A stretch of 64,000 bases of DNA from Macrostomum lignano. Its lineage: Eukaryota. The notes below the pieces were generated by a model that worked only from the letters and a program-made list of their open reading frames with translations, searched no databases and was not told the origin of the DNA. Where the stretch lies: positions 122,835 through 186,834 of the forward strand of contig NIVC01002285.1 in assembly GCA_002269645.1 (NCBI GenBank), written 5' to 3'. The translations under genes and the position numbers were made by a program. Positions 2,012-37,499 of the stretch are shown piece after piece; the stretch's first letter is position 1; each line of letters opens with the position of its first letter.

Positions 2012-2227
2012 CACAAAACCGAACGCACAAACAAACTAGCTCGTAACAAGGGGCGACAGCAAACGACTCTACAAGTAGGTGACAGAGTCAAGAATACAAA
2101 ACCACTAAGAACTGCAAAACATCAACCACGATTCTCGGGACCGTATAGAGTGATTCGGAAATTCAACGAAACGAATGCGGCCATTCGATCGGATGACAAG
2201 AACAAGGAACCAATCCGGGTACACGTC
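2012..2227 (+). pseudogene. Gypsy integrase C-terminal region, part 1 (cut by insertion)
   Basis: Manual translation LQVGDRV...PRFSGPYRVIRKFNETNAAIRSDDKNKEPIRVHV (GPY/F motif); ends at the TSD CACGTC at 2222-2227. Confidence 0.8.
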
Positions 2228-2627
2228 ACTACATATCGCGCCAAAAGTGGTTGATTTTCAGATGTTTTGACGCAAAAAACGCAAATTATACTACTATCTG
2301 AAAATGAAGTAAGTAGTATACAAAAACGCTATCCTAAGCGTGATATGGCAATATGTAGTCGTAATAATCCATGTGCTCATATATGTACATTAATTCCATG
2401 TACATTAATCCCTATCTATCTCAAATTGGATATGTACATTAATTCCATGTACATTAATCCATATCTCAAATGTCCATGTCTATCCCCAATTCTATATGTA
2501 CACTTACATTAATCTACAGTGTCATCCCCAGACGTCCCGCGCGCACCAACATTACATGTACAATGCTACATGTACACAGAGGTGAGAATTACTAATCTCA
2601 TCTACTACCAAATGAGTCAACTAACCG
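2228..2627 (+). repeat. Left terminal inverted repeat of E1
   Basis: First ~90 bp identical to the reverse complement of the right end; patchy similarity continues to ~2627 (AATCTCA-CTACTACCAAATGAGTCAACTAAC block). Confidence 0.9.
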
Positions 2628-3002
2628 TGTAGCGTACATCATGTATAAGTATTTACAATGGAGATATATTTACATTTAATCAGTAGCATATTACAGGAAT
2701 CAAGACATGTACACCATCACCAGCAAATAGAATATACAGAAAATTTTACATTGTTTTTCAATAATTTTCTCTTCATAAATGATTTTAAACAGGTTTGACA
2801 TGCAAAATATGTACAATAGATTTTTACATTGGCAATTTCGCCACACGCAATGCAAAAATGTTTTATGTACATTGAAATATATACAGCAAATAGATTCTGA
2901 TAAATACAGCAGTATTACAATGCAAATTATGTACAATAAATAGATTTTACTAATTTAATATTGCAAAATGTACATTGAATCGTCAGTTATAATTGGATTA
3001 CA

Positions 3003-6000
3003 TTATTTATAGCCATAAGGCCTGCTGCAGGCCCCGTACACACGTTTTGTCAGGACGCGCTGAAACGTCTTGTCCATATTGATCGTGTGTATGGTACAAG
3101 ACGCCTTGTCGCGCCTGAACTGAAACTGCGGCAGTTTCAGGGAGCCGCCGTGTAGCAGGGCATTGCGCAAGTCGTCACTGCGTTCCCGAATCTCCGGAGT
3201 CAGGCGGATGCCCTTGCATTTCAAGACCTGGCTCTGGACTCCGGCCGCATCCTCGACAATGTAAGTGTAGAGCTTGGGCCCTCCACTTACAAAGTCGGTC
3301 ATCCGGCTGCCTGCGGGCACCTCGTCGGTCCACATTCCGAGGCTCGTGCCATGGGGCGGCTCCCATTGGCCCTCGGAATGCCGGTAAACGACCCTGGGTG
3401 TGGGGAGAGAGATAATTAGTTCCACATGCCAACTATTCAATTCTAAAATAATTTATCAATGCATTACTTACGAGTCAGTGTCGCAGTAAATGGCCCGTTC
3501 GCCGAGCCCCTCCAATGCCTCGTACAGGCGCAGCCGGGCCTGCGTGGTCGTAAAGACACCGATTGGCACATTGGAGTACCGGAAGGGCCGCTGATTAAAG
3601 TAGCGGTGCCGGTACTCTAGCAGCATAAACTCGCTGCCAATCGGTTCGCAGGCCTTGACTTTGAGGTTGGGGTCGGTCAGCCGGGCGAGCCAGTCCTCGT
3701 AGCTGGATACTATTTCTGTCGATGTCAGGTCGTCACGCTGACAAAATTTGCCCCAGAGCCTGTGTGTTGTGAAAAGAAGTGCTACTATTAGTAGAAGAAA
3801 ATCGTTTAAAAAACAGAATTTATAATTACTTACGAATTCAAAAAGATTTTCGCTACAAAGCGAAGTCCGGGGTTGGGCTCGACCTTGTCCAGCGTGACGC
3901 CCTCCTTTGCAAAGAAATCGGCAATATAGGCGGCCTTGTCTTCATCCGACATGCCGGGGGAGCCGCTCGACTCAGCCTTCAATTTGAGGAAGGTGCTGAC
4001 ATAGTCACTGAACAGACCGGTCCGCTTCTCTGTCCAGTAGGCTAGCGCGTGCACCACCTGCAGCCGGTAGCCCAACTGGAAGGCCTTCCGCAGCTCCGGC
4101 GTGGCCCAGGTACCAGTCAGTGCCCGCTGCTCGTCTGAGTGGTCACAATCGTCGCCGCACTGCTGCTCCATACAGGGGCGGCAAAGCCCAAAAAAGAGCT
4201 TCTTTTGCACCCTGTAGGGCAGCAGCGGAATGTGCAAATTTGACGGCGGCAACACAGTCACTTTGGCAATACCAAAGTAACTAGCCAGCGCGTCAGAATC
4301 TAGCACTTGCGGCGTCGGATGTTGCACCGGGTGGCCAATCGGGTACGGGTCCTTTGACTGCACCGTCGGGTACAGAGAGACCTGCCAGTTGAAATAAAAC
4401 ATTATTTTCATAAACTGTATTTTTGCAAAATATTCTACTATATCAGTAGTATCACTACTCACCACATCCCGATATTTGAGAGTCTCAGTCTCGCTGGCCA
4501 CAGCATGCGGGATAAAACACTCTACGCGGCCGCCATAGAGAGCATCTTCCATCTTGAGTGGAGCGCGCAGATGTGCAGTTGCGGCAATGAAATCGGCCTG
4601 CGACGCCAATACAGTGTCGTATTCGTGTTCCTAAATTGTACGAACACTGTAGTTTTGCCGCTCCAACACGCGAGTGAACCACTCAGTCTCGTGGCGGATA
4701 TGGCTCAGAGGCTGCCGTTTGAGCGGGTGGACAGCATCCTGATCAGGCATGCACTGCTCGCAGCCATGGTAGAAACAGCCATGAAACTGCAAGACAGTGT
4801 TGCTCGCCTCATCAAAACCATCCACCTTGCGGCCAAGAATGACAGCCTCGCCGCCAGTCGAGTCGCAGGTGCGCAGCCGCCCGCCAAATTCGGTGGCATT
4901 CAAATAAGTCAGCCACTTGCGCGCCTTGAACGACTGCTGGTCGGCCTGCCGGGCAATCACGCCGACCGAGTTGGGCTCCATAAATCGGGTGGTGAAAACG
5001 GCCATTGCCAAACTGGCAATCGTATTGGCCTGTACAAATGGTTCCAGGCCGTCGCAAATTTCACCAATTATTGTCCTGTACTTGATGCAGCCCTCGCGAA
5101 GCAGGACTGTGTCGCTCAAACAATAATCGAGATATTCCCGATTAAAGTTGAATAATTCGCCCTGTCGCGAGGCTAACCAAGCACAGATTGAGTCATAGTC
5201 CTTGTTTGCTTTGCCGCCATAATATTCAATAGCCGGGTAGGAGCCCACGTAGTTCCAATTAGCCGGCTTGTTGAACTCGTGGGGAAACGTCCCCTTGGCC
5301 AGCTTTGTGTCATCGAGCCCCAGCGCTTTTGGGAATTGCGCAAGCGGGATTGGTATAAAATTTAGAGAATCTTTAAATACCAATTTGTCAACCGTCATGC
5401 TCATTAGCCGGCTGCCCTGGAACAGTACTTGGGGCCGCTTCTTGGCCAGGCCATTTAGCAGAGCGCCAAGCAGTAGAAACGCATCATAGCCTGATGCATT
5501 ATGCGCTACAACAATGGCGCCGCCACGGAATGTGGTGCTCAGCCAGGCGAAAAAAGCATTCAGCGAGGCCGGGCCCACAGCCACAAAATCGGCCATTTGG
5601 CAGGCGCAGTCTGAGTGGCTGACGCAATTGGAGAATTCCTCCCCCAGATCGCGGCCAGTCAGACAGTTGGCGGCGCTATGCAGGCCATTGCAGAGGCGGC
5701 AAGTCTCGCGCGGAAACGCCCGGCCGGAGCAGGTCTCGCAGCACGTGACGGCAGTCACCAGGTGCACGTGATGCTGCTTCTCCTCGTCCGTGTACGTTTC
5801 CGTATCGTAGAACACGTACGGCATAGTCGAAGCTTTCACTTTGGGAGCCTTGACGAAGCACAAATGCGAGCCGGCCTCGTCGTACTGTTTACACAGTGGG
5901 CACTTGACATGCCCGCACTTGTGATCCGGCTCCCTTTGGCCGACCTTTAGCTCCTCGCAATACCCGCAATTGGGGCAGACGCGGGTGGTGTTGCAGCGCG

Positions 6001-8328
6001 ACCGGCCAGCCCGGTTCTTGCGAAGGTGATTCTCAAAACACTGCGGATTGTAACAATTCAATCCGCAGTCAGCACAGCGTTTGTAGTCACGCTGCAGGCT
6101 CTTGCAATTGGTGCCGGGAACTTTACATTGAGGGCAGGTGTTGGCGCACTTGTGCTCTCTATACTTGCAGTCGTACGGCTGCTGGCAGCGGTCGCAATAG
6201 CGGCGGGCACCGAAAAATGGCGGCACCTTGCACACTGCGTTAAAGTGCTCGCTAATTAGGTGCAAATTCAGCACTTCGCGGCCGGGCAGGGCATACACAC
6301 ATGTATTGCCCTCCTCGGCACTGTATACCCGGACGCCGAAATCCCGGCCGGGCGACTGGGCGTTCAGGGCCGCGAGCAGTTGGGGGAGCATGTCAACCCC
6401 GAAAGGCCCGGCCTGTGCAACGGTTGATAAAGACTAAAACATTTGTATATTAATAAAAATGCAAAATAAAATGTGCAAGAATATTTTTTACTCACAGAAT
6501 ACAATTTGGCGGCAATCTGAAGTTCCCCAGTCAGCTTTGTCTGCAGTGGGGAGTCCGCCTTGATGGTCCGCCAAGCCTGTCTAGTAATGGCCTTGGCCTC
6601 CAGATCGGCGAAAGCCTTGGCCACCACCAGTGCCCGAATGAGGCACCGCTTGTCGCTGTTGGCGATGACCACGTAGTTATAGCCAATTGAATGGCGTGCC
6701 TGAATGTGCCGCTCCGCCGCATCTAAGCTGCCGCAGCCGCCCCGCGGGACCCAGGCCTTGAGCAAAAACAATTTAAAGTTGTTGCCCAAGACACTGGAGT
6801 CCGACTGCAGCACCTTGTTGATGTGCTTGAAAACAAGCTCTGCAGTGAAGCGGGCGGCGCGGACCGGCAGGACATTGATGGCAAGCATCATGTTGTCGCC
6901 AGTCAACTTGGCCGAAACAAAATCGTTTGCGTGTAGGTCGGCGCAAAGCACAGAAATTATGCCACCAAACGTGGCGCGAATATCAGTGGTATCGGTGAAC
7001 GATACCACATATTCAACACCTGTTGCTTTAAATTTTGGCAGGGCCTTTGCCCCGCCAAGACGCGCAATAAAGCCTGAAAAATGGAGGGTTTTGAAATTAG
7101 AATTGCGAGAGGCTGCAGGTGAATGACTCATAAAATCAACTCCTTACCATCGCCTTCGACAGTGTCGGGCTGGGGCGGGGGTTGAAATTGAGCCAAATCT
7201 GCAATAAAAATGCGCATGGCGACTAAAATTCTGACCGCTTGGAATTTTACAACTGTCAAAAACTTTTGATTGATTGCCTGCAGCAGCAGCAATTTTATCG
7301 CCCCACCCCAAGCAACAAAAATTGGCGAGTTGTAAAAACCCCAACTCGGCACGTTCCGACACGTAGCAACAAAAGAAATGTGGGGTTGATTGACCCCGCT
7401 TCGAATTTTAGGCTGTCAAAATTGTTTGATTGATGACCCTGATAACACAGATCCTGCCGCAGCAGCCATTGTAAAATTTAAGAAAACCCCTATCAGCACG
7501 TGCCTCCATTGTACCTCCTTGACACCTAGCAACAATACCGCGCGGCCGCTTTTGGATTTTTAAAGCTGTCTGATTAATAACCCTCACTGTAGCAGCCAAG
7601 TTTTATTGCTGCCAAAACCCCTACTGTCAATTGCAGCGGTGATTACATAATCATGCCCAAAAATCGGGGGTTGATTTTATCACTGCCGCCTGCCCGCCCC
7701 CCGCTAAGTCACGCGCTCGCCACAGGATTGCTGTTTTTGCTTCTCTAGTCACATAACCCCAGAAATTTTATGACTATCCTCTACAGGCATTATCCGGCTA
7801 TACTGCTGTTGCGGATATTCTCTAAAACTCTGTTATTTCAGCAGGCCTGAATTTGAGAAATCCAACTTCAACATCTATGTCAAGAGGAAATTCAGAAATT
7901 TTAAGCCAAAATGAATGTTAAAGATGGAAAGATGTGGCTTCAAAGAAAGCCCATATTTCAACAAGCGTTAAGTTTGCAAATCACACAAATGCTAAAGCTG
8001 AAAAGCAATTACAGAAATTTTAAGCCAAAATGAATGTTAAAGATGGAAAGCTGTGGTTTCAAAGAAAGCCCATATTTCAACAAGCGTGAAGTTTGCAAAT
8101 CACACACAAATGCTAAAGCAATTATACAGCCCTATTTTTCTGATTTTAGATTTTGCAAATGCTAAAAGCATAGTTTAACGCGCGCAGAGACTCACCTAGC
8201 TGTCGTCCCCTCTTTGCTGCCGGAGGCTGATGCTGCTGCTGTTGTTGCTGCGGTTGCTGCCTGGATGGGCCGGCCTGCCCCCACAAGGCTGAAATAGCCG
8301 CTTCCGCAGCAGAGCGCTTCGATGCCAT
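3003..8328 (-). pseudogene. Protein-primed family B DNA polymerase (Polinton group-1, VSR type), 7 exons, one internal TAG
   Basis: Exons 8328-8196, 7198-7148, 7112-6496, 6433-4463, 4381-3834, 3759-3472 and 3393-3003 total 3999 nt with consistent phases and GT-AG introns. Motifs: NSDKRC...EHF (OTU-like), Cys-rich region, YDTET, AHNASGYD, VDG...FHGCFYHGC, YRDV|VSLYP, KIFLNS|LWGKF, YCDTDS|V. TAG at 4631-4633. Exons 1-2 are less certain than exons 3-7. Confidence 0.9.
7893..8119. repeat. Two-copy tandem repeat, period ~119 bp, inside pPolB intron 1
   Basis: CAGAAATTTTAAGCCAAAATGAATGTTAAAGATGG... starts at 7893 and at 8012. Confidence 0.85.
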
Positions 8329-8854
8329 TTCGATGGGCACGCGAAGGCGTATTCAGCATGCCAGTGAAGTATGAGACAGACTAGGCCCATGGGCTAAGGT
8401 CTGCGATGCTTCACGCCTGCCCCTATCTTCAGCAGGTCAAGGCTGGTGGGAGGTCTGCACCCTCTATTTGCCTCTGGCAGCCGCAGACCCCCCCCCCACG
8501 CTGTCTCGCAAGTCGACCCAGGGTACTCGTCCCCGCGTGTGTTCAAGGCAGTCCCTAGGGCTGCTGGACAGACTGGGCTCCGGCGCTGGCGACCCTATCC
8601 AGTGGCTTCGGCCGAATTTGGGTATGCGGGTCTGGCTCGCCAACCTGCAGGCCGTGGTACTGCTCAACGTACTCTCTAATGCCTAAGGTGTTGACCGTGC
8701 CGATGGGCTGGAAGGCCGGGGAGTAGTCCGGTCGCAAGCGGTCCCCCTCCTGGTGTCGGGCCAGCCTTGAGGGTGCTATTGGCCTACTGCCCGGTCAGGT
8801 GGAGCGCCGGGTGGGTACCGCGCCCCTTTGAGGGTAGCCCACCAACCTTTTATC

Positions 8855-10359
8855 ATGGCCTTCGAGCCGTCTATGGATAATCAAGCTAACTCTAGGGACG
8901 GGGACCCTTCTAAACCCCAACCTCAGTCCGAAGGACCGGCCGGCCCTGCTGGCAGATCCCAACCGACTGATTCAACTGTGGCAAAGGAAGGACCGGCTGG
9001 CTCTGCTGGCAGATCCGACCAGAGCTACCAAACTCAAAATACCCAAAGACCTGCCAGCTCCGCTGGTGGATCTAAGGGAACCGCGAGCTCTGAGCCTAAA
9101 GGACCGGCCAAATCTGGCAGATTCGATGAAGCTCAGCGGGCTCGGCTTGAGCGCAAACGCGCTAAACAACGCGCCAAAAGGCAGGCCAAGAAGGGAGCTG
9201 CGGGGGCCAAAGCGGCGGCGTCCACCATGGATGCTGAAGCGACTGGAGTCCCAAGGCAACCAGGCGGGCCGGCCGGTGGAAGCTCCAGTAGTTCAGCGGC
9301 GGCGCTCCCTGGAGCTGCTGCCGCGGCTGCTGAGGCCGAAACCACGGCGCAACAAATGGCCACTGCCAACAAGGAGTTCCTTCGGGAGCTACCTTTGCGG
9401 CGAAGGCCAAGGCCAAAATCCCGGGAGTGATCATCCAAGGTCGCGACCAGGACTGGACCACTGATCAGCTTCAAAAAGTGTGGAGTGCTGTTGACTCCTA
9501 TCTGATTGAGCTGACTGTCGAGGAGGGAATCTCCATCGGCATTGAGCGGATGGTGCTGCGAAGCACATTCGTTCTTATTGCTCCTAGCAGCGAGGAGGAC
9601 GCTCGGCGGCTGCTCCAGCGGCTACCGACGGTCTCCTTGGATGCTGACCTTGGCGGAGCTCTTTTTCTTCGCGAGGGCCAGCGTCCAAAGACGATACCCT
9701 ATGTGGTTTTCGTCCCTGCTAAGAGCACCGCAGCTGGACCAGACGTTATTCGCCGGGTCCTACTGCGTCTGAACCCCGACCTCCCTGCTAGTGGACTGGT
9801 GTATCACCGTAAAGTCCGCAGGGGGGAGACGGGCAACTCAATTGTCCTCGGCCTTTCCAGCACTTGGGCGAGTCGGTACCCTAATGGATCCTCTTTCCAG
9901 CTGGGTGCCCTCAAGCTCAAGATGCGCCGAGGAAAGTCTGCCAAAGGGAAGGCTACTGCCAACCCCGGCATCTCCGGCAAGAGCGGGGCGCAGTCTAAGG
10001 CCCAAGGAAAGGCGCAAGCCGATCCCAAAGCCAAAGCTGCATCTCGCCCCTCTGCTAGCAGCAGTTCGGCGACCGCGGTAACGGCTCCGGCCAAGCCCCG
10101 GGAACCAAACCTGCCAGTCGGAGAAGGAGTTGAGGACGAGGCCGGGTCTTCGGAATCCGAGCTCTCCTCGGCCACCTTGGTGGGGTCTGAAGGTAAAGAT
10201 GCAGGTGAGGAAGCTTCCTCCATCCTGTCATCGGAGCCTGAGGACTCTGCTGGGGGGGCCGGTGGGGGTGAGGAGGCCATGGACGTCGACCAACTCCCAT
10301 CTCCCAGTCAAGCCCCAGCGGCCTGGGACGAGGACGATCTGTTGTCCAAGTCTCCTTGA
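8855..10359 (+). pseudogene. LINE ORF1 (gag-like), one frameshift near 9427
   Basis: Basic, low-complexity N-terminus and a globular C-terminal half (IIQGRDQDW...); lies directly upstream of ORF2. Confidence 0.7.
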
Positions 10360-10397
10360 TGGCCCGGGCTCTAGCCAGCTATTGCATTTAGTACAGT

Positions 10398-13300
10398 ATG
10401 ACTAAGCTCCACGCTGCCAAAGGAGCGACATTCTGTCTGCAAATTAATTTACAGCATTGCGTATCTGCGTCAGTAAATCTGATGAAGATTGCTGAGCTGT
10501 ACAGGCCAGGCCTCATCCTGATCCAGGAACCCTGGATGCGCAACGGTAAGTTGCCCAACATTCCCTCTGGCTACTCTGATTTTTATGTGTGTGGCCCGGG
10601 GAACAGCCGCCCTAGAGCGGCTATCCTCGCTGCTAGCCATCTCCAGGCTTGGCTGAGGACTGATCTCTCTGATGGAGACCTTTGCGTCATCCAATCTAAT
10701 CATTTCTCTCCGCGTACGTGTCTTGTTGCCTCGGTTTATATCCCAGGCGACAGAGACCCTGCTCCTGAGAGTTTACTGCGCCTCGCGCAGTACTGCGAGT
10801 CCCAGAACGCTGAGCTGTGCTTAGGGGGTGACCTCAACGCGCACCACAAGCACTGGGGCAGCAAAGATACCAAACTAGAGGAGAGGAGCTTCTGGCCCTC
10901 ATCTCTAACACAAACCTCATGCTCTGCAACCGCGGCAGCACTCCTACCTTTAATAATGGCAGATGGACCGAGGTCCTCGACGCCACACTCGTTACCCCAA
11001 GACTCTTTGACAGAGTTGAGGAGTGGAGAGTCTGGTCTGAGGAGCCCTCCCTGTCTGACCACTGCTTTATCGCCTTTAACATCGCGGACACTAAAACCCA
11101 GTCTCCGATCACTTGGAGACGCAATATCCGCAACACTGATTGGGCGGCCTACAAGGCTGCCCTTGATCTGCACCTGCAGGAACTCACGGACTTACGTCCG
11201 ATTGAGACCTGCGAGGATGTGGATCATATGGCTGAGACGCTGACAGGTTGCATTATTGAAGCCTACGAAGCGGCTTGTCCTGCTCGCGCCTACAAAGGCA
11301 AGACCTCGGCGCCGTGGTGGAACCCGGAGCTGGGGAAACTCAGGCGGAAGGCCAAAAGCCTTCATCGCCGTGCCATGAAGACCGGAAACCCGGAGGACAT
11401 GGAGCTTTTCCGGCAAGCCTCCCGCAATTTCAAATCTGAAGTGCGCAAGGCCAAGGAATGTAAGTGGCGCCAATTCTGCAATGAATTGGATCAAGACAGA
11501 CCTACTTCTAGGCTTGTCAAGGCCCTTACAATGGACAAAATGTCCAAATTAGCCATGATCAAAAAAGATGATGGCTCTCTTACTAAAGACCCTGAAGAAG
11601 TGCTTCAGCATATGCTTAGCACATTCTTCCCGAGGGTACCTACTGCTAGACCGGAGCCCAACCATTCGATGGATGGAGCCACCCTAGCGGCGGGCATTGT
11701 CACTGAAGACCTAATCGCTCGTGCGGTCAGAACCTTCAAACCCTTCAAATCTCCTGGACCTGATGGTATCTACCCTGTTCTCTTCGTGAAGCAGCCAAGA
11801 TACCCTCGTTCCTGAGACTCACCCGCAATCTTATGCGGGCCTCTATCCAGCTGGGATACGTTCCCAAATGCTGGACTGAAGCTCGGTAGTCTTTATTCCC
11901 AAACCTGGGAAGGGTGACTACCAAAGCGTCAAGGCCTTCCGGCCTATTAGCTTAACGTCAGCAATGCTTAAGCTCACTGAGAGGCTTATTCTCTGGCGGC
12001 TGCTGTCCTGCGAGCTGACAGCGATGCCCCTCAGCAATAATCAGCACGCCTTCCGTACCGGGAGGTCGACTGACAGCGCCCTGCATGCGATTGTCGAGAA
12101 GATTGAAAGGGCGGTACTGGGTGACGGTTACGCTCTGGCTCTCTTTCTTGACATTGTTGGCGCCTTCGACAACGTTATCTTTGAAGCGTTTCAGAGGGCC
12201 CTTCAAAATCGCAAAGCTCATGCTACCCTCATACGGTGGATCATGTACATGATCTCCAACCGTACGGTCACTGCCCAACTTCTTGGGCAAACTGCCTCCA
12301 CCAGAGTCTGTAAGGGTGGACCCCAAGGCGGAGTCCTCACCCCGACGCTCTGGAACCTGGTCATGGACGCTCTTTGAGTGACTCCCGACCCGACCCCGTC
12401 TTCAAAGTCGGGTATGCTGATGACGTCACGGCCATTGTGGCAGGACCGTCTCCCAGCACGCTCAGGGATCTGATGCAGAGCTTTATCCGCAAAGCAGAAT
12501 CCTGGGCCAATGACAATGGTCTGGAACTCTCTGAGCCCAAAACCGTTGCCATTATGTTTACCAGCAGACTACGCTGGAACATACGTCCTCTGCAGCTCTA
12601 CGGCAGAGATATTGCCTTCGCGCACCAGACCAGATGTCTCGGGGTCACACTTGACCACCGGCTCAACTGGTCCTTCCACGTGAAAGCAAAAGCCAAGCGT
12701 GCCTCAGCCATCCTGGCCCAGCTCCGACGAGCACTTGGCACTTCTTGGGGTCTATCCCAAAGCGGCTTTGGTGGATCTATACTTCCGTAGTTAGACCTGC
12801 CATTACGTACGCCTCTGTTGTCTGGGTTAGCGCTACCCAGGTCAAAAGCCATGCAGACCTGCTCAACACGATCCAAGGCAGAGCGTGTAGGCTCATCTGC
12901 AACGCCACCAGGTCCACGCCCTTTGCTGGCATGGGGGCCTTCCTTAATCTTCCGCCTCTTGACCTCTTCATCAGGGGTGAGGCGGCTAGAACGACGCGGC
13001 GTCTAATTGATGCCGGCGTCAAATTCATTTACATGAGAGCACCTGCTAAGCGGAACCTTGTCCCGCATAGCGATCTGTGCCTCAACTTTCTCAACGAGTG
13101 TCAGGCCAATCGCGTCTTCACCGATGGCATTGCCTCAACGCTCAACCTGAGACAGCGCTACTCCGTAGCTATCGACTCGCGCGATAACATCAATGACCAT
13201 TGGAACCCTGGTGAGCTTCATTGCTACACCGACGGTTCTAAGCAGTCAGCCAACACCGGCTTTGGTGTTGGAATCTTTCTGAACGGGAGGGTCATCGCTA

Positions 13301-14133
13301 CCCACGCTCAATACACTGGGGTCAACTCCAGTGTTTTCCAAAATGAAGTTCTGGCCATCAGCTCCTGCACTGCAGAGCTTCTCGCCACTGGCGTTACTGG
13401 TAAGAACATCATTTTCCATTCGGACAGCCAAGCTGCCTTGCACGCCATCAGTGGCTGCAGCACCAACTCTACTACAGTCCTTGACTGTATCAAACTCCTC
13501 AATGTGTTGGGTTCCGCCAACAAAATTACCCTTAAGTGGGTTCCGGGGCATGTGGGGATCCGAGGAAATGAGTTGGCTGACACCCTTGCAAAAGTTGGTG
13601 CCTCCGGCTCCTCTCTCGGCCCCGAACCTCTTGTCCCGATTCCTGGCTGTGTCATCGACTCGCGCATCAAAGCGTGGATCAGGACTCAGCACCGCTCGAC
13701 TTGGGCGAACCGCACGAACTGCAGGCAATCCAGAGGCGCTGTCCCTCAGCCCTCTCACCAGCTCCGGAAGCTCCTCTTGCGCCTCTCGCGCAGAGACATC
13801 CGGGCTGCCACCATGACCCTCTCTGGTCACGGCTGCTTCTCCAGGCACCAGTACCTGCAGGGCAACGCCACCAACGCCACCTGTAGTTTCTGCAACTCAG
13901 GTGACGAAACCGCTGAGCATTTCGTCAGCATCTGTCCCGCCTTCACGCGGGCCAGACTCACTTACCTCGGGCCACACACATCTATTACTGAAGCGTGCAA
14001 ACCCGAAAACTTTAATCAGCTCATGCGCTACCTTCGGGCCACCCGCAGGGCTGAACTCTCCTTTCCAGAGAGCACCATAGCTGCTGGCGACACTGGGGGA
14101 CCTCCCTGGGCGGCGCCAACCCTCCGTCCATAG
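10398..14133 (+). pseudogene. LINE ORF2: AP endonuclease, reverse transcriptase, RNase H, CCHC; several frameshifts or stops
   Basis: LILIQEPW, GGDLNAHH, SDH (APE); KSPGPDG, QHAFRTGRST, LDIVGAFDNV, PQGGVL, YADD (RT); YTDGSK, SDSQAAL, WVPGHVGIRGNELAD (RNase H); CSFC...ETAEHFVSIC. Confidence 0.93.
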
Positions 14134-14421
14134 CGACGCGTCGGCCGTTCAGGGACTAGCGGAATGGGCGCCCGCGCCTTCCCGCTGTGTCCCCTCCGGG
14201 ACAGCCCTGCAGCTAAGTCAAGTAAGTCAAAGCCATTTCGATGGGGAAGGTAGATGGTTGTTGATGCTGCTGGTGATGTTAATGATGCTGCTGCAGCTGA
14301 TGTTGGAGGCAGAGGGCTGGTGGCTGTCGTTGCTTCTGCTGTTGCTGCTAGCTGTGATGCTGCTGTTGTGGCTTCTGCTGCTGGCTGCTTTTGCTGATGC
14401 GGCTGCAGCAGCTCTCACCCG

Positions 14422-14430
14422 CTTTATATA
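14422..14430 (-). promoter_or_regulatory. TATA box of the E1 pPolB gene, displaced by the LINE
   Basis: TATATAAAG on the minus strand, followed by a ~180-nt CAG-rich leader running into the TSD that contains the ATG. Confidence 0.55.
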
Positions 14431-14497
14431 GAGGGAGGATGGGGTAGGGGCACGAGAGGTGTGCGTGGTTTTCTTTCCCGGGTCTATATTTTCTAGA

Positions 14498-16534
14498 TTA
14501 GTGTACGATTGTACACTCGGTTCCGCATTTGGTATAGAAAAGTTGGGGTCGAAAATACCCCATAAATTCTTTTCTCATGCGGTTTTTTATTGGATCTGAG
14601 CGGAGCCACCCAACCAGCATTCTCGCAGGAGTGGAAACTGCTGCTCCGCCAGAGTACAGTCTCTTAATTAGGAAGACAGCTTCCTCTTGCAGCATGTCTT
14701 TTCGACTTAAATCTGATAGAAAACGGTGTTTATTCAAAATACAATACCTTGGCGGACCAATAATAGCTAAATACAGATGAAAATATGAAAGATAACTTCT
14801 GTGGTTTTTAAGGCCCGCTGGTCTCTGGGAGAAAATGGTTGTTAAAAATCGCTGTATCAATTTAATAACCTTGGTGAAATGGGGCTTGTGTGCAAAGCAT
14901 CCGATTGACAGAGGCTTGGTGAAGAGTAATAGTCGATGAAAAGCTCTTGCCATCATCTAAAATATCCACAAAGAGTAATGAAGTGACGGAGATCCTCTGT
15001 CACAAGCCAAAACAGAGAGACAGAGTTTTCTACTTCTGTTTACGTAATGTTTAGGGATGGACCTGGGGTTATAGGGACAGAGAGTCAGTTATGGCATTTA
15101 CGCGGTAGTAAAGAATTGCCTTGGTGAGGCTGGGGTAGGTGTTGTGCTGTTCTCTCCATATTGGCGAACATTAATAGTCCTGGGTTGAATTTTGATATGG
15201 CTAGTATGCAGTGGAGAATCTTTGAATTGAAGGGTGATTCAACATGCAAAGTATGCAACAAAACTGATTCAGGATTCAGTGCATCTAAAAGAGGCTGTTG
15301 GGAGCTTCGGAACTGAGAATAACGTTTAAAATAGCATCAATGGCATGATTTAGTAATCGAAATCAATCGAACACTGAAAACTTTAAGTTTAATAGCAGAC
15401 TGTGTTTTTAGCCCCAATTTTTACAGTGTCTATACAATATTTCCCCAGCTTCTTGGGCAATATACATGCCTATTTGAATGATTAAACAGCATTTGTGATG
15501 ATTTATTAGCTAACATTATTATCTCTATTGATAAAATGACAGATTTCGATCCATAAAGTAAGCATTTTAACGTTAAAAATCGAAAAATGAGGAAAACTCG
15601 TGGTTTTCGTGAAAAAATTTGCATTTCTAATAAATTTTTACCATTAATCAACCATTTCTTAGGCTGGGCTGGCTTGTGGACTTCCGTGTGGGATCATTCT
15701 TGCTTCAAAGCCGTCTCAAGTAAAGTTGAAACGGCATTTGGGCAAATTAGCTGTTGAAATTATGGTTTCCAGTGATGAAATTACTGATTTTGATCAACAA
15801 AGTGTAACTTGAAACGGTAAAATTAAAGAAACTGTAGAAAACTCGCCTTTTATGAAATGTGCTTTTTACGAGCTACTAATTTAGCTTTTAATAAACTTTG
15901 ACGGAATTCCAACTTGGAGAGGTCCGTGGGTGATTCATTCCTGCTTCGAGCGATCGAACTTTCATAGAGTCTGAAAGCTTTTAGTGAGAGGGTAGTGGAA
16001 GCGATAGAATTGGCATAGCAGCACGTTTTTGGGCGGGTGGACTTCACTACTTCTAGTATACCGCATTGGTCATAGTGCCAAAGTATTTCTTTGACAAAAC
16101 ACATCTATAGAATTCAGTCTCGGAATTGTATGCAGAGGAGACACTGATTCATAGGCTGTGTACATTGACAGATGCAGGGGTATTGGGTCGATGCAGTTGG
16201 AGGTTGACTCGGATTTGCTCAGATTCGTGGGGTTGATGTGTGCATTGAAAGTTGGTTTCTTGCTAACTGGGGCGGCATGGATGACGTAATTGGAGAAGAG
16301 GGGTTTTGCTGAATGAGGTTTAATATAAGGTCCGTGCTGTGAAAAGATCTGTTTGTACACTGAAAATGGAGAGAGGGGTCGAAATTCCTTGGCATTTAGA
16401 AGGGTGCAGAGAGAAACAGGGACGAGTGGTTCAATTCGATTTGCTATATAGGGGTCTGCTGAGGGGTGGATGTTTTCGAACAAGTCTTGGGGTTGAATTT
16501 TGAATATGGCCGGAGATAAAGGGTGATTCAACAT
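14498..16534 (-). pseudogene. Two degenerate paralogous reading frames of unknown function inside E1
   Basis: Both begin ATGTTGAATCACCCTT (MLNHP) at 16534 and ~15245 and share AAAATTCAACCC(C)A downstream; broken by stops and frameshifts; no recognisable domain. Confidence 0.3.
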
Positions 16535-17209
16535 GCAACATAATTAATTCCATAGTGTACACCAGCGTCAGTGGCATATTTTGCGGATAAAGTGCGACAA
16601 GGGTCTTGTATCATCCGCACTGTGATACGAAACATATAAAACATTGCTTTCACAGTCTTGAATTTAGAGGCCGACTAAATAAATCGTATACGTATCATAT
16701 ATATACGTCTTTTGAAAACTTTTTTGACTCGGGGAGAGGGGTTGGGAATGACGTAATTGTCTCGGAGTGGCGACGAGGGCTGAATTCTAGAGGGATGAAG
16801 TATAAAAGGAGTGGATATAACAGTGTGGACAGCAATTTTTGGCTAACTCATGCCTCCTCCGCCAATTTTGGGGATGGGCGGCGGTTTCTGCGTACACTGT
16901 TTGCTTTTTGAGGGTCAGCGGAATATGAAGAGTTAATTCTTGGATGTGCGGCCGCTTTGCAAATTTTGGGTATAATTTGGGTGGGTGGGCGCTTCTGCAT
17001 GCTCTCTGTTTCAACTATTGAAAATAGTTGAAAATAAACATGATATCAGCTTTTTCAATATAAAAATGTAAAATTATGAATGTAATCTTTTTCAGTAAGA
17101 ATCTCGACTTGTAAACTCTACTAATGGTAGTATGGCGTAATCAGTTACATTTGGTTTTGAGTAATTCACATATAAATATGCATATATGACGTGTTCTGTA
17201 AAACTTGGA

Positions 17210-17740
17210 TGTTAGTTGACTCATTTGGTAGTAGGTGAGATTGTACAGTTGGCGCGCACATACCGACCCACCTCTGCGCATATACTGTGCTGTACACGTA
17301 ACAATTAGTGTTTCGAGTTGTACATATAATCTTGTGGGGTTGACGATTCAAATACGCAGAGCGGGGGCCGTCGTGTAGATTGGGGATTAATGTACATAAT
17401 GTACTGTACATATAAAAATTGTCATAGAAGTATATTAATGCGCAAGTGTACATATAGAAGGACTGTACAAGTTGACAATACACATGTAGAATTGGGATAG
17501 ACATGGAAGTAGACAATGTACATATACAATTTGAGATAGATAGGGATTAATGCAGTACATGGGATTAATGTACACATATGAGTACATGGATTAATGTACA
17601 TATACGAGTACATATTAAAGTATATCACGCTTAGGATATCGTTTTCATATACTACTTACTTCATTTTCAGATAGTAGTATAATTTGCGTTTTTTGCGTCA
17701 AAACATCTGAAAATCAACCACTTTTGGCGCGATATGTAGT
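17210..17740 (-). repeat. Right terminal inverted repeat of E1
   Basis: Reverse complement of the left TIR, including ATGTACATTAAT sub-repeats. Confidence 0.9.
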
Positions 17741-17905
17741 CACGTCAACAGATTGGAAAAGATGCAGAACCCGAAGGAATCTATAATCTTGCCCGATTTC
17801 CAACCAACGGACCCGAGAAGACTGGCATTGCAGCACAGGAAGCCGCTATATAGAAAAATTGGCACGCAAGTCTTGGATGATTCATTGGATGCTCATTTGA
17901 GCTAA
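17741..17905 (+). pseudogene. Gypsy integrase C-terminal region, part 2
   Basis: Continues the same frame from the duplicated CACGTC (HV-NRLEKM...), restoring the VHVNRL motif; stop at 17903-17905. Confidence 0.8.
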
Positions 17906-19014: not shown

Positions 19015-19525
19015 AACCGACCAATCATGTGTGACCTACAATTGTCAAGTTTAGACCCCAACTGCAATTCATCATTCGGCTTGCCCCCGGATGAACCAAT
19101 AAAGATAACCCAAAATAACCCTGCTAAAATAACCAATCATGCGCGCCTACACTAGACTAGTGGCTTAACTTTCTACCCTGTCATGCTTGACAGCAACCAA
19201 AGCGTGACCCTTTGACATTTAGGAAAATGAACCCAGTGACCTCACGAGGGGTCCGTTTGCCTATAAATACAAGTGGTCCGAAGCGGACCCGGAGCCAACA
19301 ACCGAACCTCCGGAAGGAGAAGCTCCGAAGAGGAAGCCATATATAGAAGGACTTCCTACAGACCAAGTCAATCGAGACTCGGCTGAGTTATTGCGTTAAG
19401 CCTTACTCATTTGCGCCAGGTGTTTGAGTCGACTCAATATTTTTGTTGTTGTTGAGTCTATTGAGACTCCATCGGTTGTGGTCTCCAGAAGGACTACCTA
19501 GATAGATATTTAGAAGTCTATCAGC
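19015..19525 (+). repeat. Partial LTR (U3-R portion)
   Basis: CCAATCA boxes, CTGTCATGCTTGACAG, CCTATAAATACAAGTGGTCCG and AGAAGGACTACC, all shared with 21661-22706. Confidence 0.8.
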
Positions 19526-19563
19526 GATTACCAATCTAAAAGATATCTAAAAATAACTCAGCT

Positions 19564-20538
19564 TGTAGAGTGTGCTACCTCCCGTTAAAAGTAAAAAGTA
19601 GAAATCATAGAGCCTACTGTAAGTAGATTAGTGCATGTATGCACACTTAAACCTGGAAATGATGCAAGTTGCTATTTATAGCATATGAATCATGTTCCTA
19701 TTTATAGCGAATGAGTCATGTTGCTATTCATGGCGACAGAGTGATTCATGTTGCTATTTATAGCAGCAGAATGATTCATGTTACTATATATAGTAACAAA
19801 ATGAGTCATGATACTATTTTTAAATGCAATCAATCTTATTTCCCCTTGTAGCGCAACAAGTGAAGATGCCTATAAATACAAGCGGCCCAACGCGGCACAG
19901 GAGTCAACTCCCGACGATAGGAGGAGCTCCGAAGAGGACGTTTTTAGAAAAACATCCTAGTTCACCAGTCAATCGAGACTTGGTTTGATTGTTGCGGTAA
20001 GCCTTTCTTATTTGCGCCAGTTGTTGTTAGAGACGTCTCGCTCTAGTCTATTGAGACTCGAGTATTAAAGTCTATTGAGACTTTTGAGTCTGTTGAGACT
20101 CCCGTGGCCGTAGTCTCCCGAAGGACTACCCTAGTAGATCTTAGAGGAACTACTAGAGATATCCGGAGCATTACCTAGAGTGCATAGAGGCACTACTAGA
20201 AGAAGAAGGCTAAATTGATACCGCTATTCGGCGCAGGGTACCCATTGTTAAATCGAAGCTTCTGATTGGTCCAACGACAGATACCGGCCGGAACCTACTT
20301 CAACGGAAGTACCAAGAGATATCGGACCAGATCAACATATTCTAGACGTCTACACTTCCTGAAGGACAGGAACGCAACCAGCGGTAATACTCACTGACAA
20401 GAGTCACCGAGGAGATCTCCCAGAAGAAGTAGACAAGGTAAGTGATATCTTCACTTGATAACTGGGTTGCCTAGCTACAGAGCTAGAAGTGATTGTTCCT
20501 TGATTACTGAGAAAGTCTTGGTAGTAAGGAACACATCA
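19564..20538 (+). mobile_element. Solo LTR with 4-bp TSD AGCT, inserted into another LTR of the same family
   Basis: TGTAGAG start, CACATCA end; AGCT at 19560-19563 and 20539-20542; the flanks rejoin to the U3 sequence AATAACTCAGCTGCGGTAACCAATCATGC. Confidence 0.88.
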
Positions 20539-20542
20539 AGCT

Positions 20543-20907
20543 GCGGTAACCAATCATGCATGCTCCCACGTAACCAATGGAGTAACTTTCTAACCTGCCA
20601 TGTTTGACAGCAACCAATCCGTGAACCTTTGAAATTTAAGACAATGAACTCAATGACTCATGTGGGGTCCGATTGCCTATAAATAAAAGTGGTCCGGAGC
20701 GGACCGGAGCTCAAGATTTTTGCCTTCCAGAAGGAAGAAGAGCTCCGAGAGGAAGCCTCCAAAGGACTTCCTTCCGACCAAGTAATTCGAGACTCGGTCG
20801 AGTTCTTGCTGTAAGCCTTACTCATTTGCGCCAGGTGTTTGAGTCTGTTGAGATTCTCAGTCTGTTGAGATTTATTGGTTGTAGTCTCCAGAAGGACTAC
20901 CCTGATA
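20543..20907 (+). repeat. Partial LTR, host of the solo LTR
   Basis: CCAAT boxes, CCTATAAATAAAAGTGGTCCG and AGAAGGACTACCC; truncated at ~20907. Confidence 0.8.
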
Positions 20908-21440
20908 GTGAAATTTAGCCTTTTCCACCGTATGCGTTTAGTACGAAACTCCATCTATGCACTTTCATCTGCTGATTCGCTAAACGCAGGCTACCAATAG
21001 CAGCCTAACATCGCGCTGTATTTTAATGCACGAAAGTACGAAGCAGTCCTTAGACCTTCGAAACCTCGCAGCCTCGCAGACCCCCTATCCTTTTCCTCTA
21101 CTTTAGACTCACTAGCATAGTAACCAAAGATATCGATAGAAACCAAATCAATTAAGTCCACAGTCCGCACTCGGCCGACGAACAACTACAGGCATTAGCC
21201 TTGTACACCAGATCATCCGAGTGTACCGATAAGTATTGCTATACATTCTATTCTGACTGCTTCATACTTCGTATTTAGGAAGTTTACATCTTTGTATTTT
21301 GCGCGAACATCACCGGTGAATTAGATTGAAATATAACATCCAAAGAGAAGGTATAACACCGCAGGAAAACATTGAGTCGGACTTGCCGCTTATTGTCTAA
21401 TCTTAGAGTATTCGGACGCAGATCCGACAGAGAGCCGAAA
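20907..21440 (+). repeat. Non-coding block G, copy 1
   Basis: Colinear with 29775-30327, including near-identical blocks such as CTACCAATAGCAGCCTAACATCGCGCTGTATTT. Confidence 0.85.
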
Positions 21441-21479
21441 CCCTATCTTTAATTTCCCATTCCCATTCTACCATCTCCG

Positions 21480-21660
21480 CCACGACTACTACCAAGCCGT
21501 TGCCCAATTTGTCCACTTGGCTTGTGGTGATCCTGTTTTCGACTATGACGATGACGACGAATTGGCGCGACTCGACAAGGGCGACCTACGAGTTCTAGAC
21601 GCACTGTTGTCATGGTACGCCCTGCTCCCGATGGACACCACCCGGAGGTCTGAGCGCGCC
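21480..21660 (+). pseudogene. Truncated paralogue of ORF Z (32123-32707)
   Basis: LACGDPVFDYDDDDELARLDKGDLRVLDALLSWYALLP vs LACGDTVFEWDDEEELARLNKGDLRVLDGLMSWYALLP; cut by the LTR at 21661. Confidence 0.8.
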
Positions 21661-22706
21661 TGTAGAGTGTTCTACCTCCTGCAAAAATAATAAAAAATGG
21701 CTAACGTACTACTTGCATAGTAGTAAAATGAAGAGCATGTATAAAGGTATGCTTTGAGCCATGCGTATATTCTGACTAACCAATAGGAAGAGAGAGACTT
21801 CGAGCATGCTAAATTTAGAAATCACCCAATCACGTGTAACCCGCACTTGTCAAACTCAGACCCCAGGAGAGATGCATCATTCAACAGCACTCACGTGAAC
21901 CAATCAAATGTAACTAAAAATAAATAACTCGAATGCGATAACCAATCATGCGTTTTTACACTAAACCAATGGAGTAACTTTCTAACCTGCCATGTTTGAC
22001 AGCAACCAATCCGTGACTTTTTTGACAGTTGAAAAGTCTAACTCACGTGATCTCATGTGGATCCATTTGCCTATAAATACAAGTGGTCCGGAGCGAACCC
22101 GGAGTCAACAAGTTTTCCTAGAGAGAAAGCTCCGAAGAGGAAGCTCTGCAGCAGACTTCCTGAAGCAACTCGAGACTCGGTCGAGTGACTTGCGGTAAGC
22201 CTTCCTTATTCGCGCCCGTTGTTGTTGGGTCGACTCACTTGTGATATAGTGTTAGATTCTGTTGAGACTCTTGAGTCCATTTGAGACTCCATTGGCTGTA
22301 GTCGCCCGAAGGACTACCCTAGTAGATCTTAGAAGATCTGCTAGAGAATACCGGAGCTATACCTAGAGTGCATAGAGGCACTGCTAGAAGAAGGAGGCTT
22401 ATATTGAACCGGAGTTGGCGCAGGGTACCCATTGTAATTGGAAGCTTCCCATTGGTCCGAACGACAGATACCGGCCGGCGAGACACAAAGAAGAAATCGG
22501 ACCAGAGCAACAGAGTCTTCCGGAAGATAAGCGAGACCTACGGATCCACTGAGAGACCTATTGCGAGAACTACTCGAGGAAGGGAACAGCTCAACCGGAT
22601 TTAAGGTAATTGAGTACCTGCAGTTGACTTACTGGGTTGCCTAACTACAGAGCTAGAAGTGATTGTTCCTTGATTACAGTTGAGGACTGTAATAAGGAAC
22701 ACATCA
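21661..22706 (+). mobile_element. 5' LTR of a Ty3/Gypsy element
   Basis: TGTAGAG...CACATCA; TATA box CTATAAATA at ~22071; followed by a PBS-like TGGTGAACTCGCC and by gag. Confidence 0.88.
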
Positions 22707-22707
22707 A

Positions 22708-22722
22708 TTGGTGAACTCGCCC
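22708..22722 (+). promoter_or_regulatory. Primer binding site (tRNA not assigned)
   Basis: TTGGTGAACTCGCCC directly after the LTR's CA end. Confidence 0.6.
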
Positions 22723-23181
22723 TTTCGGCACTACTCAAATTTTGAGCAATAGCCCTGATCAAGCTATTGTAAAAGTGACGAGAGAGCGACTTCATTAATT
22801 TTGCGCACACGTGTTAGAGTTAACACTTTTCGAGTTTTGTACGTTTTGAAACTCGAATACAGTTTTGGTATACAGGCTTGAGAACCTGTCAATTTTGAGT
22901 ACAGTTTAAGCACGCGTATTAATTTTTGTTTTAACGAACTCGAGCAAGTGTATATCTAAAACAAAACCAAAAATTAACTTCGTCGGTACACTGAAAACAA
23001 ACCGAAAGTAAAGAATCGTCGACGCAAACTAAAACAAAACCGAAATTAATTGATACTTCGTCGAGAACAAAGTTAACTGACGAAAGAAAGAGAATCAAAG
23101 AAGAAAAAAGTCCGTAAAAAAACAAGAAGACAAGTACACTTCGACGCAAGTGGAAGATACACTTTGCGGGACGCCGCATAA

Positions 23182-24509
23182 GTGCTGAGCCAACCAGCAA
23201 ACAGAACAAGTTCATTTGAGTACAGCCAGTGGCAGCAAGCCACAACTCCATTCGAAGCCAGCAAAAAACAGATCGACGCTACAAGACAATTCGTTACAGT
23301 CGAGGTTTATTCCGAGGCAAACACCACACTGGACGATCCATTACAAATCGATCCAGATCTCGAACTACCTTTCTACCCCATCAACAACATGGCGCGGCGC
23401 AACCCAACGGTGCATAGGGAAATCAAAGAAACAGTGGGTACCTTCTCGATGGAGAAAGATTTTAACACCTTTGTCGACCATTTTGACCTGGTATGCAGGG
23501 AATACAATCTGCAAATTCCAGAGAAGGCACTGCTGCTACCACCTCTTCTCCAAGGTACTGCACGAGAAATTTATGGCAACCTGGATGCGGAAACACAGCA
23601 AAATTATCCAGCATTATTCATTCAACTGCGCGCGCACTTCAATCGCTGTGGCACAAACAGATCAGTGCTGTTGCACAAGTTACATAACAGAAGGATGCAG
23701 GCAACAGAATCCTTCCTCGCCTTTGTGGATGATATCCGCCAAATAATTAAGGCACTGCATCAGCCAACGCTGCAAGCTGCGGACCAACCACCCCTAGGTG
23801 CAGCGGAACTAGCCGCTAGAGAACGACAACGATTGATGGATCGAGAACAAAACCTCATCCTGCACGTAATAAACAATGCACAGCCGTCACTTCGGGATAG
23901 ACTTTTGGCGAGAACATCGAAACCGAGGAAGACCTTTTGCGGTGCGGGATGCAATGAGAAGCCAGTGCCCCATTAATGACAACAGGCAACACAGAAGTGC
24001 AGAAGTTGACGCAACAACTAAACAAGCTAATGAAACATCAAATAGCCGCCATCGCCGAACAGAAAATAAGAAATGAACGCGCCCAAGCCAGATGCTACTA
24101 CTGCGGACAAGAAGACCATTATCAAATTAATTGTCCTCATCGTTCGACCAGATATGACAAGCCAAGGCCACCATTCAACAGTCGGAAACCTCAAAAGCCA
24201 TGGCAGCAATATCAAAATCGGCAACAACAAGGCACGATGCGCTTCGGAAATGATGGCTACAGGCCACGCAACGCCAAGTACACACCAAAACAGCCGACAC
24301 AAGCAATGCAACGATACGCAAATGCCATCACGTACACACCGGAAAATGAGCAACATGAACAGCACGTCTTCACAATCGACGACTTGGAGATGGACTTTAC
24401 GGACCCGGAACTTGGTATCAGCATGATCGAGAGGAAGAAGACAAACGAGGACAACAAGGACGACAAAGAAAAAGCAAATGGAATCGGCATGATCAAAATG
24501 GAAGAGACC
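23182..24509 (+). pseudogene. gag: Gypsy gag (capsid plus zinc knuckle), frameshifted, truncated before protease
   Basis: FNTFVDHFDLVC...LLQGTAREIY...LRAHF capsid-like segment; CYYCGQEDHYQINC knuckle; ends at the AGTAGT terminus at 24510. Confidence 0.8.
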
Positions 24510-24691
24510 AGTAGTAAGCGTTTTTTACGCCCATAGCTCGTTTTTCCATGGCGAAAGTAATATGAAGTTCCAAGCACTATTTCAATGGAATACACGCATA
24601 GCCCGTTTTTGCATAGCAAAACCAATAGGAAGTCCCAGCCACTAGAAGATGAATTTCTATCCTACCCAGGCGCGTTTGCCTAATCTCGTCC
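24510..24691 (+). repeat. Polinton-type terminal sequence of element A
   Basis: Starts AGTAGTAAGCG; colinear over 182 bp with 49843-50024, first ~35 bp identical. Confidence 0.8.
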
Positions 24692-26835: not shown

Positions 26836-27480
26836 TTAAAATTCACAGAGGCCCGAGTCCGAGTCAGAAGTCGCCCGTCGAATAGGCGGGCCAGGCCTAT
26901 TCTCTCTAACCAGTATGCGCAATGGACCATAAAGCGAAGGCTCTTCGGCGATGATTACCCAATTCTCGCCGTTACTACGCACCCGTCCATGCCCGCGCCC
27001 ATCAAGAGGGCGATGTCGGGCGTAGACGTGAGATGCGTGAGGATGGTTAAGAAATGAGTACCAGCGAGGATTGTTGTCGCCGCTCATAGCGCCTTCGCTC
27101 CGGCTAGGTCCATCCCGTGACTGTCGACAAACACGAGCCTCGACGGAGCCAATCTCACGATGGCTGCCGCCCCCCGCGACGCTCTCGCTTGGTCTAGAAG
27201 GCTCGCTCACCAAGTCGGACTGCACAGCGCTTCCGCCGCCCACGGCACCCTCGCCCAGGACGGAAGACTCGAGCATCGCAGCGGTCGGTCGAACATCCTC
27301 GCCAGAATCACTTTGAAGGCTAGATTCAACATCGCTGTCTCCGCCCGCAGCGCCATATATATTATTCCACAGGGCCCTCGCCCACGTCCACGCACTCGAC
27401 ACCCACGTCCACGGTGCCCAGCGTCCATGATCACCCTGCGGTTCAGGACTGATGGCATCTGCGGAGGAAAGTCGCAACAC
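26836..27480 (-). CDS. Hypothetical 214-aa protein in the inverted arm
   Basis: Open in both arms (213 aa at 48810-49451); ATG start; AATAAA-like signal downstream; no known motif. Confidence 0.4.
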   Translation of the reverse strand: MLRLSSADAISPEPQGDHGRWAPWTWVSSAWTWARALWNNIYGAAGGDSDVESSLQSDSGEDVRPTAAMLESSVLGEGAVGGGSAVQSDLVSEPSRPSESVAGGGSHREIGSVEARVCRQSRDGPSRSEGAMSGDNNPRWYSFLNHPHASHVYARHRPLDGRGHGRVRSNGENWVIIAEEPSLYGPLRILVRENRPGPPIRRATSDSDSGLCEF

Positions 27481-27506
27481 TAGATGTTTATTTCAATGAG
27501 GATAAA

Positions 27507-27728
27507 TTAAAACATAACCAAGCAGGTACCAAACTTACCCTCTTCAGGGATCCGGCATAGTTCATTTAAGTAGTCGGCATCCGGAAACTCGTCAAACTCC
27601 GGAAATTGCGACGAACTATTAAAATATAAAGTATCTATATGGTGTCCATTTCGCGAACGCGAACGGCCCCGTCTAGGGTCGTTAACAGCTTCAGCAGCGC
27701 GTCCGAAATGATTTAGATTCTCGCTCAT
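27507..27728 (-). CDS. Hypothetical 73-aa protein or exon in the inverted arm
   Basis: Open in both arms; TATAAGC ~110 nt upstream; ends in a possible splice donor (AG/GTAAG). Confidence 0.3.
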   Translation of the reverse strand: MSENLNHFGRAAEAVNDPRRGRSRSRNGHHIDTLYFNSSSQFPEFDEFPDADYLNELCRIPEEGKFGTCLVMF

Positions 27729-29738: not shown

Positions 29739-29774
29739 GTAATTAAAGTTATTTGTAATACGTAACTAACTTTT

Positions 29775-34025: not shown

Positions 34026-34056
34026 ACAACAGCAGCCGACGGGTGCCGACAAGGCC

Positions 34057-37461: not shown

Positions 37462-37499
37462 ACCACCGGTTCCTCCATGGCCGATCGCATGCAACACCG

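Follow-up and report, generated by a model that had tools for sequence, protein, structure and literature searches.

Polintons (Mavericks) are described as being 13-25 kb in length, and one report presents a screen that requires five proteins within 20 kb (10.1101/2023.08.22.554363). Typically, their core genes are uninterrupted: intact vertebrate Mavericks are reported to have intronless genes between ends of the type (AGT)2, (AG)3 or (AC)3A (PMC8097293), and nematode Polintons have intronless core genes, with introns in cargo genes only (10.1101/2022.07.12.499685). Introns have been described elsewhere: Ginger1 transposases carry 1-4 introns (PMC2836005), cryptophyte Polinton-like viruses contain group I introns (PMC12220804), and dinoflagellate Maverick-like elements contain introners (10.1101/2025.03.18.643946). 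Here we analyze a 64,000-nt stretch of contig NIVC01002285.1 of the flatworm Macrostomum lignano (assembly GCA_002269645.1, forward strand, positions 122,835 to 186,834; hereafter, the window) that contains a gene for a family B DNA polymerase of the protein-primed type (pPolB) with six introns. We consider it probable, at roughly 0.7, that this gene belongs to a mobile element, derived from a Polinton and 9-10 kb long, of which the window holds a broken copy; the element likely replicates itself by means of the spliced six-intron pPolB and likely receives its integrase in trans. The element is a new, reduced Polinton variant that is mobile and likely Polinton-like in its working, and its pPolB is not a host gene. 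The 764-Mb genome contains at least 108 matches to a part of pPolB exon 4 (matches, not copies), 39 of these at 86% identity or higher (family A, that of the window copy) and 69 at 53-67% (family B).

The pPolB gene lies on the minus strand (8328..3003) and has six GT-AG introns, as proposed in an earlier note on this DNA that offered a phase-consistent model totalling 3999 nt. The intron lengths in that model hold for introns 1, 4, 5 and 6 (997, 81, 74 and 78 nt) but intron 2 is 74 nt (7147-7074) rather than 35 nt, and intron 3, given as 62 nt, is either 62 or 83 nt; the revised coding sequence is 3960 nt. Intron 2 was revised because the acceptor AG of the 35-nt version is missing in five of seven sister copies, whereas the downstream acceptor TTTTTCAG is kept in all seven. 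For intron 3, both versions are in frame; the shorter one is favored by seven codons conserved between families A and B, and the longer one by homologs without those residues. Three introns indeed fall in catalytic motifs, namely, intron 4 in motif A, intron 5 in motif B and intron 6 in motif C, the latter two each interrupting a Ser codon (phase 2). Pfam DNA_pol_B_2 (PF03175) is matched by exon 4 (E 4.3e-14) and exon 5 (E 8.5e-12), and the nearest database proteins, at 91-94% identity, are labelled Macrostomum lignano.

The window copy itself is broken because it carries an in-frame TAG (4633-4631, codon 855), absent in 10/10 other family-A copies examined, and a 5.9-kb long interspersed nuclear element (LINE; 8338-14231) at the start codon. 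The 14-bp target duplication of the LINE includes the pPolB ATG, and its insertion has moved the leader and TATA box away from the exons that encode pPolB. Both lesions were overlooked in the earlier note.

Contigs from four public sequencing runs (X1, X2, X4 and X12) were aligned to window 2700-8337. Exact GT-AG joints over 3394-3471, 3760-3833, 4382-4462 and 7199-8195 are present in X1 and X2, at depths of 34.6/34.8, 17.3/14.7, 8.6/11.4 and 4.9/5.4; among these four introns, X4 shows the joints of introns 4 and 6 only, and X12, the deepest run, which is unlabelled, has no joints at introns 1, 4, 5 and 6. Junctions of the kind asked for in the earlier check were found for introns 1, 4, 5 and 6 in the runs that are likely RNA; the joined transcripts derive from the pPolB family, not necessarily from the window locus. 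The parts of the gene are as follows (all on the minus strand).

8196..8328, exon 1, with basic clusters at both ends
7199..8195, intron 1, 997 nt, phase 1; joint in X1 and X2, none in X4 and X12
7148..7198, exon 2, 51 nt; 98-100% identity in matched sister copies
7074..7147, intron 2, 74 nt, phase 1; predicted from acceptor conservation, no joint among those listed
6496..7073, exon 3, from the gene model and sister copies
6434..6495, intron 3, 62 nt (83 nt if to 6413), phase 0; predicted, no joint among those listed
4463..6433 (start 6412 with the 83-nt intron 3), exon 4, with a Cys-rich region and exonuclease motifs; Pfam PF03175
4631..4633, in-frame TAG private to the window copy, from comparison with family-A copies
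4382..4462, intron 4, 81 nt, phase 0, in motif A (DxxSLYP); joint in X1, X2 and X4, not X12; also supported by family B
3834..4381, exon 5, the second Pfam PF03175 match
3760..3833, intron 5, 74 nt, phase 2, in motif B (KxxxNSxWGK); joint in X1 and X2, not X4 or X12; also supported by family B
3472..3759, exon 6, from the gene model and family B
3394..3471, intron 6, 78 nt, phase 2, in motif C (YxDTDS); joint in X1, X2 and X4, not X12; same position in family B
3003..3393, exon 7, ending in TAA, from the gene model and joints

The basic clusters of exon 1 likely represent a nuclear localization signal. The six introns are real, and four of them (1, 4, 5 and 6) are seen spliced in likely-RNA data. 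These four combine GT..AG ends, removal in the likely-RNA runs and absence from homologs, as expected of spliceosomal introns; introns 2 and 3 are assigned to this class by their ends and conserved positions only. That the joints stem from a genomic copy without introns is unlikely, because none of the fetched genomic loci has a contiguous exon junction at introns 4-6, the donor site being present in 40, 43 and 43 loci, respectively; an apparent intron loss in locus L126 proved to be an alignment artefact. The chance that the putative introns are insertions or misread coding sequence appears negligible: the lengths of introns 4 and 6 are divisible by three and family A has an open frame across intron 4, but the joints are exact, the intron-4 site in family B varies in length (67, 69, 83 and 116 nt), and homologs lack such residues. 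Indeed, no extra residues were found at introns 4-6 in the 45 of 68 other homologs that were aligned, and for introns 1, 4, 5 and 6 the misread-coding explanation is already refuted, provided that the runs are RNA. Together, the joints, the shared positions and the homologs without intron residues support the previously suggested dependence of the enzyme on host splicing.

All six intron positions are common to families A and B, the proteins of which are ~66% identical, and synonymous sites between the two are near saturation (dS, the number of synonymous substitutions per site, ~2). The intron sequences are unrelated between A and B and their lengths differ by non-multiples of three; the short introns also appear unrelated to each other, in a comparison among the introns of these two families. 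Families A and B group together (99/93) in a 45-row tree built from the exon-5 block, from which distant Endonuclease VII-type polymerases were omitted as unalignable, and the sister of this clade, P0037, has motifs A-C contiguous. The motifs lie within a single open reading frame (ORF) in 6/16 metagenome loci, the other loci being fragmentary, and other Polintons of the same genome, one of them inside the window, have long uninterrupted polymerase ORFs. Because P0037, the homologs, the metagenome ORFs and these other Polintons are all uninterrupted, the introns were probably gained in the lineage leading to families A and B. The earlier suggestion of intron gain in a Polinton-type polymerase is thus upheld by the shared A/B positions, the homologs and the contiguous motifs of P0037. 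A lone, degraded pPolB that belongs to the same broad clade (L049:8714 to L050:893; ~30-40% identity) has motifs A-C without introns. Weak exon-5 matches on contigs C211, C3895, C2269, C154, C1065 and C1458 turned out to be short fragments only.

Local conservation at the positions of introns 4, 5 and 6 ranks in the 85th, 98th and 99th percentile, respectively, and the probability that two of six introns fall in the top 3% is 0.013. For three of six falling in the catalytic motifs (23/1319 residues), P = 1e-4, with the motif definition picked post hoc. Targeted gain into the motifs may account for this placement. It is likely, however, that the motif introns persist by retention, given that only exact loss would be tolerated there and that an element replicated as DNA would rarely pass through a spliced cDNA.

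The gene lies inside an element (2228-17740) with inverted ends 5'-ACTAC..GTAGT-3' and the target-site duplication (TSD) CACGTC. Without the LINE, the element is 9.6 kb long, similar to several sister copies; family lengths without nested insertions are 8.8-9.9 kb. Its parts outside the coding exons are the following.

2222..2227, no strand, left TSD CACGTC, repeated at 17741-17746
2228..2625, plus strand, left terminal inverted repeat (TIR), starting 5'-ACTAC; its variable block is bases 6-27 (2233-2254)
8338..14231, plus strand, LINE with endonuclease and RNase H; 14-bp duplication at 8324-8337 and 14232-14245
14246..14430, minus strand, displaced pPolB 5' leader with TATA box (TATATAAA, 14430-14423), a putative promoter that is contiguous with exon 1 in sister copies
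14431..17210, no strand, AT-rich non-coding arm, from the indel pattern, no gene found
17211..17740, minus strand, right TIR, ending GTAGT-3', from inverted-repeat comparison
17741..17746, no strand, right TSD CACGTC, paired with 2222-2227

The other copies compared have an empty site at the LINE position, and the LINE family is young and high-copy. The arm upstream of pPolB behaves as non-coding: compared with three copies, only 4/21, 7/39 and 6/38 of the indels are multiples of three. The TIRs are ~400-530 bp long and imperfect inward in the window copy, and 0.9-1.35 kb long in family B. At either end, bases 6-27 (window 2233-2254 and 17714-17735) are modular and copy-specific, whereas bases 1-5 and 28 onward are conserved. 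By block, likeness between copies in bases 6-27 is 53-71% in family A (22 copies) and 40-81% in family B (15 copies). Within a copy, the two ends agree at 98% over bases 6-25 (59% among copies); in family B the agreement is 98-100% (40-81% among copies). By comparison, the first 20 bases are identical across five copies of one family with AGTAG ends.

Paired ends were found in 34/38 stretches, 30/34 of these with a perfect 6-bp TSD, as have 10/10 further family-B copies. The ratio of nonsynonymous to synonymous substitution rates (dN/dS) in exons 3-7, which the earlier note had proposed to compare among copies, is 0.13 for 55 pairs inside family A, 0.11 for 21 pairs inside family B and 0.15 for 77 pairs across the two; judging from these ratios, pPolB is under purifying selection. 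Partial domestication, raised in that note, is not supported: the element has inverted ends and is present in many copies, with 6-bp TSDs that differ from copy to copy, and the window locus is broken. A domesticated host gene is very improbable: a host gene, too, would have introns, a TATA box, spliced transcripts and purifying selection, but the 108 matches are dispersed, each with inverted ends and different flanks, and the window locus has a stop codon and a LINE. A single-copy version lacking the ends was not encountered, although no search for one was made in related species.

The gene content of the element is reduced, a feature overlooked earlier. Queries with two integrases, the ATPase, a ~450-aa capsid-like protein and other core ORFs of the Polintons of this genome gave no match in 37 element stretches at E 0.05 (the queries did not name protease or minor capsid); only the polymerase, a PC4-like protein, a dUTPase and one unknown ORF were matched. 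The missing genes are not a window-edge effect because both ends and the TSD are in view. The conserved ~450-aa protein, which we take to be the likely major capsid protein, gave a single-sequence fold with a predicted local distance difference test score (pLDDT) of 32; searches of PDB, phage sequences and Rfam gave nothing informative. Some family-A copies (L071:754-3893, L031) retain the PC4-like gene, a 241-aa ORF and the dUTPase; family B retains a PC4-like gene that is transcribed divergently, in some cases along with a ~330-aa ORF.

Two explanations of this reduced layout compete with the reading given at the outset. The element could be one segment of a bipartite, bidnavirus-like entity in which a second ACTAC-ended segment has the integrase and capsid genes. 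Bidnavirus segments share common termini (PMC8502044), many elements have family-A ends without the polymerase, and some copies carry the PC4-like and dUTPase genes. This is nevertheless unlikely, as the polymerase-less elements examined are non-coding palindromes or carriers of unrelated inserted transposons, and no integrase was found in any ACTAC-ended stretch examined. Palindromic family-A elements, considered as candidates for the second coding segment, showed no genes beyond nested transposons. Alternatively, the short forms might be passive relics, that is, deletion remnants of a complete intron-bearing Polinton, the full-length master of which is extinct or unassembled. Many copies are broken, and a study of C. 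elegans treats pPolB with an inverted repeat and no integrase as remnants (10.1101/2024.01.15.575659). We regard this as still more doubtful, given that the same reduced layout occurs in two families 66% alike, that the short copies have their own TSDs and often near-identical ends, and that dN/dS among them is ~0.1.

Under the preferred reading, a mobile reduced element, host RNA polymerase II would transcribe the gene from the TATA box and the spliceosome would form the mRNA. The pPolB would then prime at the ACTAC ends, and the excised linear form would be copied by strand displacement. Displaced strands would fold back on the inverted ends, yielding identical ends in each copy along with palindromic derivatives, and a Polinton-type rve integrase from another element would insert the product. 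A single phase of intron gain would precede the A/B split, the introns being kept since by DNA-borne spread, with only exact loss tolerated in the catalytic motifs. Protein-primed replication of an excised linear form, with a putatively active enzyme, is likely. Strand displacement with fold-back fits, without being proved by, the agreement of ends within copies and the palindromes with their own TSDs.

Palindromes with family-A ends and their own 6-bp TSDs were identified (L012, L013, L018, L019, L062, L064, L065, L068, L069, L079, L020 and L021). Most of the palindromic derivatives are non-coding; in L020 and L021, the polymerase is doubled over its 3' half. In form, the palindromic derivatives recall snap-back defective genomes. 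An origin as long-read artefacts was ruled out where direct 6-bp TSDs and different flanks exist; the palindromes L066 and L067, with inverted flanks, may be such artefacts.

Several points tell against the account given above. The RNA label of X1, X2 and X4 is a guess, none being recorded as RNA, and all come from one study; most joints have fewer than 30 bases on the short side; X1 and X2 also carry non-canonical joints, which are lacking in X12; and introns 2 and 3 have no joint among those listed for the four runs. Among the copies are near-identical duplicates of a single insertion, and the counts therefore exceed the number of independent events. The core-gene queries came from distantly related Polintons, and very divergent or intron-rich genes could escape them. 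As for the helper, the ten integrase-bearing Polintons with both ends visible all start with AGTAG, and an ACTAC-ended integrase element was not found with three integrase queries in 27 neighborhoods, the last ten of which show one end only; the queries scored the best 128, 150 and 107 of 2204, 672 and 2261 candidates, respectively. A large AGTAG-ended integrase family (L178-L185; L080:1766 onward) has no polymerase or capsid-like match within 20 kb, and one end related to this family is nested within a family-A element.

More tentatively, and with the balance of our judgment somewhat against so specific a version, the element could be a distinct type of self-copying nuclear element: a capsid-less, integrase-less, 'polymerase-only' Polinton offshoot, resident in one animal lineage for long enough to have six introns fixed, that replicates from private ACTAC ends with its own spliced polymerase, borrows an integrase and has, just inside each end, a fast-diversifying 22-base address, the diversification of which may be due to antagonism with the host or the element's own palindromic parasites.

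Elsewhere in the window are two intronless Polinton-type regions with pPolB accompanied by Endonuclease VII, dUTPase, deoxynucleoside kinase and an ATPase-like ORF: that at 39749-48121 is broken, and that at ~51700-64000 has a 1478-aa ORF and extends past the contig end. A perfect 42-bp inverted repeat with a 43-base spacer (39448-39574) lies at the edge of the former. A 1.7-kb inverted repeat, 98-99% complementary, occurs at 26441-28168 and 48122-49845, 20 kb apart. Retrotransposon integrase and protease ORFs, with several repeats resembling long terminal repeats, occupy 615-1049, 33997-39266 and 19111-29921, and the pPolB element is inserted in the first of these retrotransposon regions.

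Neither a spliced animal pPolB nor the element described here turned up in the searchable literature; subscription papers, Repbase entries and supplements were outside this scope and may contain one. An intron-bearing lineage would be invisible to published screens that need several intact core ORFs close together. The case appears to be one of a virus-like element becoming a purely nuclear, vertically spreading transposon while selection preserves its polymerase. It is also tractable, with a laboratory flatworm as host, about a hundred matches and with intronless Polintons in the same genome as controls, and bears on Polinton end replication, integrase action in trans and intron accumulation in catalytic motifs.

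The closest known systems are Polintons/Mavericks (adintovirus-like), with which the element shares the PF03175 pPolB, TIRs, the 6-bp TSD and a short, trinucleotide-type end motif; the PC4-like and dUTPase genes are shared with Polintons of the same genome. Of the defining Polinton features, it has a family B polymerase of the protein-primed type, bearing both exonuclease and polymerase motifs and 31-41% identical to non-flatworm relatives, several of them from named animals, TIRs within 100-1500 bp and a TSD within 5-8 bp (6 bp); the rve integrase, the packaging ATPase and capsid genes, a length of 13-25 kb and (AGT)2 or (AG)3 ends were not found. In contrast to Polintons of 13-25 kb, the intact core genes of which are reported as intronless in vertebrates and nematodes, the element is 9-10 kb long and has six introns and no detected integrase, ATPase or capsid-like gene. 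Its ends, 5'-ACTAC..GTAGT, differ from the Polinton (AGT)2/(AG)3, the nearest published type being the (AC)3A of the swamp eel (PMC8097293). The dinoflagellate Maverick-like proviruses also have spliceosomal introns within Polinton-like elements; however, those are young, repeated introner transposons in full elements, whereas here the introns are old, mutually dissimilar and fixed in two families of a reduced element. Ginger1 is likewise an enzyme of virus-like origin that gained GT-AG introns (1-4) in a DNA-transposon lifestyle, but it encodes an integrase and no polymerase, the reverse of the element described here. Bidnaviruses and linear protein-primed plasmids also place pPolB between inverted ends on short linear DNA, and such plasmids are not known to have an integrase. 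Unlike these, the element, for which no capsid segment was found, integrates with a 6-bp TSD and has nuclear introns.

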